From: an uncultured Parachlamydiaceae bacterium
GTDB lineage: Bacteria; Chlamydiota; Chlamydiia; Chlamydiales; Parachlamydiaceae
DNA length: 64,000 nucleotides
NCBI GenBank assembly: GCA_963752155.1
Contig: CAVVXH010000021.1
Coordinates: forward strand, 32,001 to 96,000
Direction of reading: 5' to 3'
Part shown: positions 3,008 through 61,235 of the stretch, one piece after another
How the letters are laid out: each line of letters opens with the position of its first letter
Numbering within the stretch: position 1 is the first letter of the stretch
The notes under the pieces: generated by a model
Databases searched by the model: none
What the model saw: the letters and a program-made list of their open reading frames with translations, nothing else
What the model was told of the DNA's origin: nothing
Program-made: the position numbers and the translations under genes

Positions 3008-3495
3008 CTCCTAAATAACATAATCGACTGATGCGGAAGACTAAGAAAAATTAAACGCAAAGACACGAAGGCGCAAAGAGCACAAATAGATCTTACGCGA
3101 AGAATCTTCAGTTTAAAGGAAGATATTATACTTTACATGTAAGATCTCTTTGTGCTCTTTGCGCCTTCGTGTCTCCTAAATAACAAGTTCGCGCCTTGCC
3201 ATTGGTGCCTGACCTGATATTCTGACATTTGCCGATGCGATAACATTGCTTCCTAAAGGGCAAATGTCAGAATGTCAGGTCTGGAACCAAGGCTAAAACG
3301 TTACCCCCAAGATTTACGCAACCGAAAAAAGCGTCGTTTTCAATTAATAACAAGATACTAAATTCTGAGAGGTAACGTTTAGCCTTGGTTCCAGACCTGA
3401 CATTCTGACATTTGCCCTCCTGGGAGGTTACGTTATCATTGTAGGCAAATGTCAGAATATCAGGTCAGGCACCAATGGCAAGGCGCTTTAAAAAT
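3008..3495. mobile_element. Composite palindromic element, family A, locus 1 (296-bp core 3191-3486 plus flanking hairpin module 3061-3174)
   Basis: The core ends are a 43-bp perfect inverted repeat (GCGCCTTGCCATTGGTGCCTGACCTGATATTCTGACATTTGCC), with a second internal IR pair. Near-identical copies at 29169, 51923 and 56682; partial copies at 34132 and 58561. Confidence 0.9.
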
Positions 3496-3511
3496 CTGTA
3501 TGTATTCCTTG

Positions 3512-4155
3512 CTATTTTTGCACAGTTTTTAACCATTCAATTAAAAACTTTAAAACAGGAACTTCTTTAATTTTTAATACTTCAGCAAATATTCCAATTT
3601 GCATTTGACTTACAGTTCCCTCCTCTAAACGAAGATCATCAAACAAAAGTTCTAACAGTTCGTTAGTCGTCATAATGTTCACATTACGTAAATAGAGAAG
3701 ATCAGCCAAAGCTTTTTCAGGCGAAGCCATGAGAGCCGTGGCCTTATCATTAATCTTAATTAAATTGAAACCCACTTGGTAGAATTGCGATGGAACATGT
3801 AGATAACTAAATCTTCCTATGGGAGTGTCAAAATGACGAGAACGTTTAGGCGTAACAGATGTAACCTCTACAACATATTCTGGGATTATCCCATAATATG
3901 CAAGTGCATATTCTCGAGATATATAAGAAGGGCCATAAATTTTATTTGCCATGATTTCAAGGCTATAAGGTTCTCTATGATAATCAGGACCAAATACATA
4001 AAGACCTTTTTTAACTCGGATCAAATCCTCATTTTTTAAAAGAGCTGTGAGTTTAGCACGAGGTGAACTATACTCTGCAAGGCAATCTATAACAAAGGTA
4101 TAATCGATCTCTTCACAGGGAGATAGATTTCTAAGTTTTCCATAAAATTTGCCAT
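3512..4155 (-). CDS. AbiEi-like (type IV toxin-antitoxin) antitoxin / wHTH regulator; probable 1-nt frameshift near 4135
   Basis: Motifs LIRVKKGLY, PSYISREYALAYYGIIPE, TSVT, TPIGRFSY and ASPEKALADLLY are typical of AbiEi. The frame stays open upstream of 4024, and one extra A in an A-run would link it to ATG 4155. Confidence 0.8.
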
Positions 4156-4182
4156 GAAATCCACCCGCCTATCATTACTTCT

Positions 4183-4217
4183 TGTCAGTATGTATAGTTT
4201 TATTGTACATACTGACA
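4183..4217. promoter_or_regulatory. Inverted-repeat operator upstream of the AbiEi-like gene
   Basis: TGTCAGTATGTA-N11-TACATACTGACA, a perfect 12-bp IR 27 bp upstream of the predicted start. Confidence 0.6.
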
Positions 4218-4240
4218 TAAAAATTGCCAAGCACTAATTG

Positions 4241-4375
4241 AGCCTTGTTCACTTCTTCGCTCAATTATTCCTCCTCTGTGTTCTCTGTGATCTCTGTGGT
4301 AGATTTTTTTTACCACAGAGAACACAGAGGAGGAATAATTGAGCGAAAGTTTCTCGTGTACAAGTGAACATAGCC
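4241..4375. mobile_element. MITE family E with 8-bp target duplication, enclosing a 9-bp-repeat hairpin
   Basis: ACTAATTG direct repeat at 4233-4240 and 4376-4383. Imperfect TIRs AGCCTTGTTCACTT / AAGTGAACATAGCC. Inner IR TTCGCTCAATTATTCCTCCTCTGTG...CACAGAGGAGGAATAATTGAGCGAA. Confidence 0.8.
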
Positions 4376-4503
4376 ACTAATTGTATGAAAGGAAATTTTA
4401 ATTTATATTTTCGTCACGAGGTGAATGCTTACGCTTACGAAAAAATCTAGCTTTTTTTCCTTTGCTTTCCTACAATAGAGCAACAGACTCACTGGAGAGT
4501 ACT

Positions 4504-58444: not shown

Positions 58445-58504
58445 GTGAACCTTTATGATCTTGTGGTCTAGATCATGCAGAAGTTCAGCCTTTTAGGCAA
58501 TATC

Positions 58505-58766
58505 AAATTAAATACAAAGCGAGACAGTTGCCTGCAGGTCGGGGAATAACAAATTTTTAAAGCGCCCAAGATTTACGCAACTGAAAGAAGCGTCGTTTTC
58601 AATTAATAACAAGATACGTAATTCTGAGAGGTAACGTTCTGGCCTTGGTTCCAGACCTGACATTCTGACATTTGCCCTCCTGGGAGGTTACGTTATCATT
58701 TTAGGCAAATGTCAGAATATCAGGTCAGGCACCAATGGCTTGTCTCGCTTTGTGTTTAATTTTTTT
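58505..58766. mobile_element. Family A composite, locus 6, with the left hairpin deleted
   Basis: Ends AAATTAAATACAAAGCGAGACA...TGTCTCGCTTTGTGTTTAATTT; central spacer and right hairpin retained; abuts the exbD stop. Confidence 0.88.
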
Positions 58767-59192
58767 CTATGGTTTCAAGACAATATCCATTTGCGTAAAA
58801 CCAGCAATTTCAATAACATTTTTTATCGATTGGTAAACGCCAAATTGTGCCTGCTTATCATGAAATAATTGAGGCCTTGCAGAAGGAAATTTCACCTTTG
58901 CTTCTTTAAGCAGCTCCTGCAATTCCTTTAAAGACACCTTCTTCGAATTTAACCAAATGGTATTATCGCGGTGAACTTGAATGGCGATTGGACTACATTC
59001 CCCAGAAGAAAGGCACGTATTTTGTCCTACATGACTTGAATCTGCTAATGAAATCTGATCCAACTCCAATAAAGGGGCAATCACAATAAAAATGATTAAT
59101 ACGACAAAGACAACATCGATAAGGGGGGTTAAATTAACTACAGGCTCTAAAACTTCTTCTTTACTTGAACGATTCAGTCTAATGCGAGACAT
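58767..59192 (-). CDS. exbD: Biopolymer transport protein ExbD/TolR
   Basis: VNLTPLIDVVFVVLIIFIVIAP. Confidence 0.92.
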   Translation of the reverse strand: MSRIRLNRSSKEEVLEPVVNLTPLIDVVFVVLIIFIVIAPLLELDQISLADSSHVGQNTCLSSGECSPIAIQVHRDNTIWLNSKKVSLKELQELLKEAKVKFPSARPQLFHDKQAQFGVYQSIKNVIEIAGFTQMDIVLKP

Positions 59193-59904
59193 TCCCCGCT
59201 CCTCTCGCTCTATACTCCAACTCCACCGCATGGACCAAGGCTAAATTAAACCCTTCCATGTCAATCCGAAAATCGCGCATCGTATTTTTTATGTAGTTAT
59301 ATCCAATAAGAGCTGGGATAGCATCCACTAAACCCAAAACAGTCGTTGTCAAAGCTAATGAAAGACCTTCCAGAACAGCCTGTGAACTACCTGCGATCTG
59401 TGTCTGCATGCTGGAGAAAGTCAACAAAATTCCCCATACAGTGCCCAATAACCCTAGAAAAGGAGCCAGACTCACAACTGTTGAAAGCAAATATAAATTT
59501 TTTTCCAATGTTTTTGCCTGCGTTTCCCCTTCTGCGTGTAGAGAATCGGCTAACACATCGAAATCTATCGAGGCTAACAATCCAACTTGGGCCCCTTGGG
59601 CTTTATTTTTATTCAGCAAAATAAGAGCTTGTTTTTTAAGAGTCAAATACAAATCTAAAAAAGGATTCGGATCTTTTTCACAGGAAAGAGTCGTCAGGTC
59701 GATGGCTAAAGGAGCAGTTGCAAAATTCTTTTGCTGCTCCATGAAAACAGCGTGGAAATTCATGGCATTTTTTTTGGCTCTCCAAACAAGAATCCCTTTA
59801 TGTAACAAGAGAACCCAACTCAAAACAGATAGGAAAATTAATCCGATAAAAATCATTTTCCCAAAAAAATCAGATGCTATGTACGACTGAATAAATGGGT
59901 TCAT
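59179..59904 (-). CDS. exbB: MotA/TolQ/ExbB proton channel protein
   Basis: APFLGLLGTVWGI, ALTTTVLGL, AIPALIGYN. Confidence 0.92.
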   Translation of the reverse strand: MNPFIQSYIASDFFGKMIFIGLIFLSVLSWVLLLHKGILVWRAKKNAMNFHAVFMEQQKNFATAPLAIDLTTLSCEKDPNPFLDLYLTLKKQALILLNKNKAQGAQVGLLASIDFDVLADSLHAEGETQAKTLEKNLYLLSTVVSLAPFLGLLGTVWGILLTFSSMQTQIAGSSQAVLEGLSLALTTTVLGLVDAIPALIGYNYIKNTMRDFRIDMEGFNLALVHAVELEYRARGAGNVSH

Positions 59905-60214
59905 TTGCGATCTCGTTTCAAGAAAAGAACTGCTAAAGGGGCCAGACTGGTGCGATCAACGCATTTTTAAAGGTGGGTTCGCTTCCATAAAATAAATGTT
60001 AGCTATTTTTCAGCTTACAGCGATTTTATACGTCGTGATCCCTATCACTAAGGTTATAGTTGAAGGCTTTTTACATCTAGGTTGTCCACATTAGCAGCAA
60101 AAGTTAAATCTAATTTTAGAGATTTTCTATAAGTCTGTCAAGAAATAAAGAAACACTACAGCAGTTCTCGCTAAACTTTCGTACCCGTGTGCGGTCGTGT
60201 GCGTGCCCGTGCCC

Positions 60215-61002
60215 CCTACTTTCCGCAGGTAAAAGTGATGCAAGATTTTATCCGAAAAATATTGTATACTAGTGTGTGGAGTTAGGTCTACACTTTTTTT
60301 TATTCCTTTTTCGGAACATTTTTCAAATTTGTCCCCGAAATCACTCTTCTTCAATCAATAAATACGACCTTCCTTTTGAGCTTTTTTGAATTAATTCTTT
60401 CTCCTTCTCGTAAAAAGATCTTTGACTTTCTTATCAAGCCATTTAATTCTCTAAGTATCTTCCGATATCTTCGATAATTAAATGTTCAATGATGTCACCT
60501 CCATCTTCAATTATCATTCTTATCGTTCTTACCGTTCTTATCGTCTTTATCGTTTTTATCGTTTTTATCGTTCTTATCGTTTTTATCGTTGCATCGTTGA
60601 TTACGTCTACATATCCAACTCACAGGGTATTTTGAGCTTATTTTACTGCAATTTCATTGATGTTCACAGCTTGATACGTTCTGTTGCTACTGTAGATCAA
60701 CGGTATAAACGATAAGAACGATAAGAACGATAGGAACGATAATAAGGATAAGAATGATAATTGAGGAAGGTGGTGACATCATTGAACATTATCATGATGA
60801 ACTATCTGATTTGCATTTGAGCATACTTAAAATGCTAGGAATTGAAAAGAAACATTATTGGCAGACCTCCGCAGGATAATTTAATATGATAATCTATTTT
60901 GCCAATCAAAAACAACCAGCCTGGCTGGGGGATCGTTTTCCATGGTAGTTGACATCAGTAAGGCATCACAAAATTGCATCACATTTACCTGCGGAAAGTA
61001 GG
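60215..61002 (+). mobile_element. Internally deleted IS1634-like element
   Basis: 29-bp TIRs (28/29 match) CCTACTTTCCGCAGGTAAAAGTGATGCAA and 6-bp DR GTGCCC. Peptide 60754-60879 (DELSDLHLSILKMLGIEKKHY) resembles IS1634 transposase C-termini, recognised from memory. Confidence 0.7.
60481..60790. repeat. Palindrome built on 9-bp tandem arrays (TTATCGTTY x9 vs RAACGATAA x6)
   Basis: Arrays at 60511-60591 and 60707-60760, with 30-bp unique outer arms. Confidence 0.9.
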
Positions 61003-61235
61003 GTGCCCGAAAAATTTCGTAGATTTTACTAATTTTCGGGCACGGGCAGGGGCACGAAAACTAGCGGGAATTGCTGGAAACACTATATAAGGATTTACAA
61101 ATATTCCATAATCTTGTATAATTAAAGTCCGAACCTATTAGCTATATTTTATAGCTCAATTTTTTAGAAGCGATAGTAGACAACTAGTTGCTAATCTCGC
61201 GTCCTACACCGCAATAAAAAGGAGAGAAAACATAC

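Follow-up and report, generated by a model that had tools for sequence, protein, structure and literature searches.

The 64,000-nucleotide window analysed here, from an uncultured bacterium that lies outside the Chlamydiaceae and likely belongs to the Parachlamydiaceae, probably samples a genome-wide pile of about 20 short palindromic repeat families, whose movement likely involved three or more unrelated types of enzyme, and in which nesting likely reflects the copying of whole composites together with the preference of three families for GC-rich words, rather than a general seeking of hairpins. The repeats are not one system, but comprise REP/TIR-type repeats (families A and C), arms of nuclease cassettes, and miniature inverted-repeat elements or MITEs (B, D, E, F and G). 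Neither A and C nor the 9-mer hairpins count as MITEs.

The assembly analysed (labelled G000; 3.13 Mb, 80% complete, with congeners G001 and G002) contains 675 repeat loci totalling 131 kb, identified using a module library across the whole genome. Modules of at least two families occur at 260 of these, a figure inflated by the locus grouping used. End motifs are far above chance genome-wide (A arm 377, F 128, C 107, B 92, E 36). The hairpin families, their target duplications and five nestings reported previously (B in A, D in A, C in D, G in F and a 9-mer hairpin in G) were all verified in sequence (Table 1), the C-in-D and hairpin-in-G nestings being without target duplication; the 9-mer hairpin within E had been overlooked, as had one J and one F end where pstS begins and the F ends that terminate serS and dnaG. 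The compound at 34132-34676 is strongly folded (z = -32, with 0/100 shuffles equally stable). A de novo scan for terminal repeats with target duplications recovered F, J and K plus fixed internal words, and was superseded by family-by-family tests. Some copies are lineage-specific, as was expected: there is one clean empty site in G002, and other repeats lie at orthologous gene ends. One DNA sequencing run matched (share 0.05), its contigs holding repeat pieces at high identity and almost no unique DNA; these include an A-B junction piece with 30 letters on one side, which was not counted as bridging. No RNA sequencing runs were listed as containing window DNA.

Table 1. Repeat elements in the window, with positions counted from its first nucleotide
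Feature	Position	Strand	Details
X/Y arms, tandem-word hairpin (CACAAAGAG/ACGCAAAG)	3008..3190		type flanking GxxExxY gene at C6:157 kb
Family A double hairpin, TIRYT-type REPIN, empty spacer	3191..3486	-	
Family E MITE	4241..4375		ends AGCCTTGTTCAC/GTGAACATAGCC, 8-bp duplication ACTAATTG
CTCTGTG/CACAGAG 9-mer hairpin inside E	4274..4329		
Family C (GGAGTGCG REP) compound, partial	9410..9548		
C-type compound, half (modules M, Mb, Ct)	15603..15833		
B MITE, internally deleted	17166..17204		TTA duplication
B MITE, full-length, solitary	21795..21954		TAA duplication
AAGGACAGC/GCTGTCCTT 9-mer hairpin at rny stop	25826..26141		other sequence here in congeners
F terminal repeat, last residues of serS	29115..29136	+	
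Family A + Y arm, C-terminus of ORF 29486-30619(-)	29169..29536		
A hairpin unit, interrupted by D	34132..34676		
Family D MITE	34150..34580		TIR TGGGGAGAAACG, 9-bp duplication TGCCTGACC
Family C REPIN core within D	34243..34476		without duplication
F end, dnaG stop	46329..46364	-	
Family C REPIN without D shell	48271..48504		
Y-A[B]-Z composite	51861..52403		
B MITE in A spacer	52108..52266		TAA duplications 52105-52107 and 52267-52269
First 26 codons of pstS frame in repeat DNA	52408..52486	+	
X-Y-A-Y-X composite, A spacer empty	56577..57163		
Truncated Y-A-Y composite between amidase and exbD	58505..58764		empty in G002
Family F MITE	60159..61076		TIR CAGCAATTCCCGCTAA, 9-bp duplication GAAACACTA
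Element G	60215..61002		TIR CCTACTTTCCGCAGG, 6-bp duplication GTGCCC
AACGATAAG 9-mer hairpin inside G	60481..60790		tail-to-head junction of GxxExxY cassette arms

Nesting is invariable in three families, D, G and J (8/8 sites). The proportion of intergenic target words lying inside repeats is 62% for GYCNGRC and 52% for GTGCCC, with 20.5% for TWA, 19% for TTAAA and 17% for TATA, and D, G and J likely prefer short GC-rich words that are concentrated in older hairpins. It could instead be supposed that there was no targeting, each of the three having landed in a repeat by chance on one or two occasions before being co-amplified, such that nesting reflects survival in neutral DNA. This is compatible with the presence of D in one register of A and of G in F arrays only, and with recombination among multi-copy hosts, yet we consider it unlikely, since two loci have G in the left arm of F and a third has it in the right, J ends adjoin a C-type loop, Ct and various positions in F arrays, and in other genomes (G014, G088, G308, G259 and G391) D-like ends adjoin GGGGTCAGRC words. 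Within G000 itself, repeated targeting by D cannot be distinguished from one or two founders, as nearly all D ends lie in one A register and two copies keep both ends and the duplication.

Less likely again is the proposal of the earlier note that hairpin structures attract all families, making nesting an active rule of the whole system. The multi-family loci, the invariable nesting of D, G and J, and the location in A of 15/32 paired B copies (one of which had been recognised by eye) might all be read in this way. However, with shared sites collapsed, only 17/105 independent insertion sites were nested compared to a background of 21.2% (P = 0.92), the background being computed from the repeats present today with a rough gene finder, and a nested call requiring the host to be intact on either side. 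Nesting no more frequent than random insertion was a result that the earlier note itself had set as refuting its proposal. Among the AT-targeting families (B, E, F, K, N, O, P and Q) 9/97 sites were nested, below background (P = 0.0015); most families do not seek one another. Furthermore, of the 12 TWA sites of A, nested B copies use one, the only TTA/TAA site in the spacer, while the mirror-image TTA on the opposite arm of the stem is left unused. The last alternative, that fold-backs and inflated arrays were created by error-prone long-read assembly, is very improbable, for while four window genes are frameshifted (uvrA, pdhB, pdhC and uvrB), a foreign GC-rich 5 kb stands at the start of contig C5 and array lengths may be unreliable, the arms have diverged, duplications are family-specific and differ between loci, and other genomes contain these families with duplications of their own.

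The reading that we favour, composite copying combined with word preference, is illustrated by the F elements containing G and its hairpin, which occur at four loci with four different 9-bp duplications; the suggestion that composites are copied as units was thus borne out. B-in-A looks like a further example, in which one founder was copied together with its host: the nested B copies display one end variant throughout and mostly one host architecture, and B would have entered A once and then amplified with it. A single founder is not proven, because the 14 B-bearing hosts do not come out as a clade in a tree of 60 A copies (10 changes, three of them forced by well-supported branches). The orientation of B within A was rejected as proof of a single founder, as solitary B copies have the same polarity relative to TTA.

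Terminal inverted repeats and family-specific duplications were found for B, D, E, F, G, J, K, N, O, P and Q, with a TWA duplication in 26/32 B pairs and duplications retained in 21 copies of E, 23 of F, four of G and two of D. These data support the earlier claim that families differ in duplication length and in mobiliser. The claim that they are transposase-less stands for the window, where an NCBIfam scan of 48 of the 65 ORFs of at least 100 aa detected none (Rfam also gave 0 matches within the window), but not for the genome, where A and C flank Y1/RAYT genes. The genome also contains an intact IS701-like gene (C3:12700-14103, its left end at the contig edge) and a multi-copy 2.27-kb TnpB element, the ends of which match no hairpin family by inspection. 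Among possible autonomous partners, that of D was found in relatives, while none with matching ends was found for B, E, F or G among the 72–300 genomes searched, nor for J or K in the genomes searched; one of the searches, at the DNA level, was weak, scoring two candidates per genome, and G101 was not scored in this and one other search. A profile search of G000 using PF01609, PF01610, PF13358, PF13340, NF033559 and the D parent detected no cognate transposase. The label IS1634-like previously given to G was not confirmed, with no NF033559 match at E 0.1 and, against 30 chlamydial IS1634 loci, a best tblastx E-value of 0.078 and ends that do not clearly match, although its 6-bp duplication presumably fits IS1634. 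The GGCT ends and 8-bp duplication of E might point to ISL3, and the TWA duplication of B to IS5/IS1031, with no autonomous match found for either. The MITEs may have been moved in trans by DDE transposases that are now lost or unassembled.

Families A and C appear from their sequence context to be REP/TIR-type repeats with HUH transposase genes elsewhere in the same genome. The Y1_Tnp gene RAYT1 (C10:596682-597707) has A hairpins on both sides, a DnaA_C-like tail and a Y---NP motif, and scores 71.7 bits against NF047646, under the cut-off of 80; the Y1 gene RAYT2 (C11:40743-41345) has C hairpins upstream only and scores 98 bits, over the cut-off. At RAYT1-like loci in relatives, at least one GGTCAGRC-type word is present in 12/18 and at least two in 6/18, and GGAGTGCG words are present at 10/15 RAYT2-like loci. 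G001 and G002 have no RAYT1-like match despite their A-like hairpins. Long flanking duplications are not in excess (A 0/20, C 0/57) and the ends are ragged, and neither a GTAG nor a CGTC tag was found at A or C ends. A decayed duplication of ~21 bp at the exbD end prompted a search for long duplications at X/Y elements, which were rejected (2/116 compared to 2% in the control). The HUH proteins would have copied A and C along with anything inserted in them.

D seems to derive from an unclassified hAT/Mutator-like IS. Its autonomous relatives in other genomes have 9-bp duplications and TGGGG ends; in seven parent sequences D103, D171, D195-x-x-H198 and E364/E367 are invariant, with a helical insert of ~190 residues. 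The nearest folds are Hermes (hAT) and ISCth4, with equal scores, while no Pfam or NCBIfam model matches and the Atlas gave only a lead (PF00872 at 0.81). The word NGYCNGRCN, derived after the fact, fits 10/12 near-clade ends compared to 1/21 distant duplications (hand count), and 2/22 complete duplications in the D-parent family. The transposase of D may recognise this word, which A arms would supply in bulk.

The 9-mer hairpins are arms of GxxExxY cassettes and, more weakly, of four-helix-bundle cassettes. There were 14 GxxExxY matches, and inverted arms flank 50/80 related GxxExxY loci compared to 3/61 controls; the 9-mer hairpin within E is present in 21/21 E copies, and the 9-mer word at the rny stop also precedes a four-helix-bundle-like gene at C1:43 kb. 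The GxxExxY nuclease is only a candidate for spreading these hairpins.

The remodelling of genes described earlier was verified at serS, dnaG, the 29486 ORF and pstS, where element ends now appear to encode gene termini. The C-terminus of serS derives from F (PAIPAKN, compared to RLVP and KLVPQV in the congeners), as does that of dnaG (…KVLFKSSSSR, compared to …KVKL in G001), and that of the 29486 ORF has been replaced by a Y arm (KHKARQLPTAPPIGK, compared to SVNLGS in G002), each followed by the stop codon. The ATG of pstS lies just downstream of an AGGAG with which the Z arm ends, and is followed by a J end (52431-52446) and an F end (52447-52486). Outside the window, K forms an in-frame insert of 56 residues in a TPR gene (C11:122897-125260) that is absent in G001 and G002. 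A survey of 2481 called genes flagged two internal insertions, and comparison with orthologues confirmed one of them; the effects of the repeats fall mostly on stop codons (67 genes). A wider possibility, which we put forward tentatively, is that one lineage of an uncatalogued hAT/Mutator-like IS family has specialised on the GGGGTCAGRC word of TIRYT-type REPs across environmental chlamydiae, with D and GxxExxY arms hitch-hiking on HUH-driven hairpins, in a layered chain of parasites upon parasites that joins three mobility systems of different chemistry and rewrites protein termini including the PstS signal region.

REPINs have been described before, as have ISs that target REPs and palindromes inserted in frame. 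As far as the published accounts of REP/REPIN-RAYT and TIR-TIRYT systems go (PMC3733652; PMC6006769, subclass 2.1.2), these share with A and C the hairpin doublets, the lack of long flanking duplication and a repeat-flanked single-copy HUH-Y1 gene, and RAYT1 resembles the TIRYT proteins described there in its Y---NP, DnaA_C-like tail and GGTCAG-type arms; however, the present hairpins of ~110 bp are paired into ~300-bp elements, lack a GTAG/CGTC tag and are wrapped in the arms of other families. Like the REP-targeting ISPsy8, ISPa11, ISPpu9/10 and ISRm19/22, as outlined in PMC1525189, the D lineage appears to insert at one REP position, but its parent goes unmatched by Pfam and NCBIfam, resembles hAT/Mutator transposases in its fold and uses a TIRYT-type word, and only the MITE remains here. 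The p-MULT/IS256 superfamily, on the features reported for it, resembles the D parent in acidic residues, D-x-x-H after the second Asp, helical insert, 9-bp duplications and the presence of ISCth4 among the top folds, but the parent has no Pfam Mutator match and its insert of ~190 residues exceeds the 99–138 described. Rickettsia palindromic elements and other gene-fused repeats, in the accounts of PMC10969869 and PMC3184786, are likewise palindromes fused in frame in an intracellular bacterium, whereas internal insertions are rare here and stop codons predominate. BIME/NIME mosaics, as presented in PMC3184786, are also intergenic mosaics of multiple repeat units, but are tandem rather than concentric (Russian-doll), and the present repeats mix HUH, DDE and nuclease-cassette origins. 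Literature on chlamydial MITEs, Parachlamydiaceae palindromes, nested bacterial MITEs and GxxExxY, mostly in open journals, contained no description of such a system, nor of repeats like these in the Chlamydiota.

Surprise is limited, because every ingredient has precedent. Nevertheless the rule of nesting is now testable, namely that target-word composition and composite copying decide which elements nest. The repeats also offer candidate enzyme-substrate pairs (TIRYT and its repeat, an unclassified DDE family and its 7-bp target word, GxxExxY nucleases and their arms), as well as concrete cases of repeat DNA turned into protein termini.

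The genome under study spans 3.13 Mb in 22 contigs and is 80% complete; the window lies at C21:32001-96000. Sequence with at least three self-BLAST hits makes up 7.7% of it, gene duplicates included, and a library of 45 modules annotates 675 loci and 131 kb genome-wide, with two or more module families together at 260 of these loci. When genes were called with a crude finder (2481 genes, 77% coding), 18–23% of intergenic DNA genome-wide proved to be repeat, as did 5580 of the 14550 bp that are intergenic in the window, whose gene content is chlamydial and for which an Rfam search gave zero matches. 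Every target duplication and nesting named in the earlier note was confirmed at base level in the window, and two layers missing from it were found: an internal 9-mer hairpin in all 21 copies of E, and a J end and an F end at the start of pstS.

Among the MITE families, identical TWA duplications are present in 26 of 32 B pairs, while target duplications were found for 21 copies of E (8 bp), 23 of F (9 bp), 10 of K (5 bp), four of G (6 bp), three of J and two of D (9 bp), and N, O and P together have 24 copies with TA duplications. No cognate MITE transposase was found in the 80% complete genome using five family models and the D parent as queries. B may belong to IS5/IS1031 and E to ISL3; the IS1634-like label given to G in the earlier note is unconfirmed. 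The core and shell of B are separable, because the B hairpin occupies another shell in the congener G002. Genome-wide, ATPase genes similar to those in the window often adjoin B or F ends.

The proposal that these families generally target one another was not upheld. The empty site of each duplication-bearing copy was rebuilt, shared sites were collapsed, and the site was then sought elsewhere as repeat, with 3000 random intergenic positions put through the same test as background. Nested site classes numbered 17 of 105, compared to 21.2% of random positions (P = 0.92); B, E, F, K, N, O, P and Q together contributed 9 of 97, and D, G and J together 8 of 8, which may not all be independent. This split arises because the target words differ in their repeat share: 62% of intergenic GYCNGRC words (the putative target of D; 244 of 418 sites lie within A arms alone) and 52% of GTGCCC words are inside repeats, compared to 17–21% for TWA, TTAAA and TATA. 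What survives is a narrower proposal, that D, G and J target particular words. For B nested in the REP-type hairpin A we favour one founder copied along with A, since one of 12 TWA sites is used, with a single end variant and mostly in one host architecture, although the B-bearing hosts form no clade in the A tree, which counts against a single founder. The orientation of B within A was uninformative on this point.

A pattern search identified a 1.2-kb D-type element with a transposase remnant in another genome (G088). Relatives of this D parent are present in 21 of 401 genomes and have TGGGG/TAGGG ends and perfect 9-bp duplications. Neither Pfam nor NCBIfam holds a model for their transposases, in which D, D, DxxH and E residues are invariant and whose predicted fold (pLDDT 67.6) is closest to Hermes and ISCth4 (E ~2e-6). 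The D parent is similar to p-MULT but does not match its description in PMC3942029. In the genome under study the D word fits exactly at 14 of 24 ends, most of the remainder being decayed A sequence. Among the closest relatives (at least 40% identity to the G088 fragment, plus a G014 MITE) it fits at 10 of 12 ends, often as GGGGTCAGRC, and among distant relatives in 1 of 21 duplications, the word having been derived after the fact for both counts. ISs that target REPs are already known (PMC1525189).

The genome contains two Y1_Tnp genes. That on contig C10 (RAYT1) has A hairpins on both flanks and scores 71.7 bits against the model for REP-associated tyrosine transposases, which has a cut-off of 80, while that on C11 (RAYT2) has hairpins of the second REP-type family, C, upstream and scores 98 bits; their proteins would have copied the A and C repeats. 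The C10 protein, under the cut-off, shares a DnaA-like tail with subclass 2.1.2, the TIRYTs, which are associated with GGGG[AT][CG]A[CG] repeats (PMC6006769, PMC3733652). At RAYT1-like loci of relatives, GGTCAGRC-type words occur at least once in 12/18 and at least twice in 6/18, and the closest such locus has near-A arms; GGAGTGCG words occur at 10 of 15 RAYT2-like loci. Long flanking duplications were not enriched at A, C, X/Y or 9-mer hairpins.

GxxExxY matches number 14 in the genome. The cassette flanked by AACGATAAG arrays has many internally deleted copies, and the 9-mer hairpin within G is the tail-to-head junction of its arms. At related loci a 10-mer is common to the upstream and inverted downstream flanks in 50 of 80 cases, compared to 3 of 61 controls. 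A gene that matches the four-helix-bundle model weakly, below the cut-off (E 3.5e-4), has the AAGGACAGC word on its 5' side.

Compound movement, also claimed previously, stands for one composite and is one of two alternatives for another. Four loci carry the hairpin nested in G nested in F, each with a different perfect 9-bp duplication, and G lies in the left arm of F in two, in the right arm in one and in a collapsed F in one, so G and its hairpin travelled as a unit. Either the whole F[G] composite moved, or F was entered by G at least twice. Y/Z arms are found on 110 of 175 A loci.

An empty site is present in a close relative: the amidase–exbD gap of G002 is ~40 bp and lacks the element, and where other gene ends were compared with their orthologues in G001 and G002, the orthologues lacked these elements or had different repeats. 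The suggestion that the elements remodel genes was borne out, as the termini of serS, dnaG and ORF 29486 consist of element-derived residues that the congeners lack. The first 26 codons of the pstS frame lie in repeat DNA, with AGGAG within a Z arm preceding the predicted start; at this position an ordinary signal peptide of ~22 residues is present in eight homologues. Genome-wide, 67 of 2481 called genes have their stop codon inside a repeat. An in-frame K element adds 56 residues to a TPR protein and is absent from both G001 and G002; Rickettsia palindromic elements offer a counterpart (PMC10969869, PMC3184786).

Coordinates of features in the window and elsewhere (C, contigs of the genome under study; L, loci of other genomes)
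Location	Feature	Remark
Window 234-2832, 5520-7831, 17227-19284	uvrA, pdhB, pdhC, uvrB	Frameshift-split; probably assembly sequencing errors
Window 22802-23362	kdpC	Neither kdpA nor kdpB alongside in window
Window 23370-24911(-)	ADP-ribosyltransferase exoenzyme domain ORF (PF03496)	Adjoins SycD/LcrH-type chaperone gene; looks like a type III effector–chaperone pair (23370-25728)
Window 32534-34012, 50945-51784	AAA-ATPase genes (PF01637, PF09820)	The second truncated relative to G002
Window 59920-60100	Non-coding, 5' of tolQ	83% conserved in G002, above nearby genes; no Rfam match; possible RNA
C5:1-5000	IS4-like transposase	GC 58-71%; foreign DNA joined to contig
C6:157.3 kb	Intact GxxExxY gene	X/Y arms on flanks
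C10:276.7 kb	Intact GxxExxY gene	Inverted AACGATAAG arrays on flanks
C10:554799-556115	Efflux membrane-fusion protein	Second in-frame K element, at start
L025-L078 (13 loci, one genome)	GxxExxY cassette inside CCTGACTTGTGCCA-ended element at many sites	Long duplications flank several of these (11/13 loci examined)
L091:2273-2367, L099:3309-3390, L100:666-758 (G002)	B central hairpin	Inside different shell with TA-flanked ends
L363-L368, L381 (G078)	D-parent relative, 7 copies	Duplications GCCYNRGGC-like, giving the family a second target word

Literature searches found no account of such a mobilome in chlamydiae. What the earlier note observed holds, and its interpretation does so in part: the mobilome is dense, real and layered, it is built from known kinds of element, and the D lineage, which is unclassified, is its most novel part.
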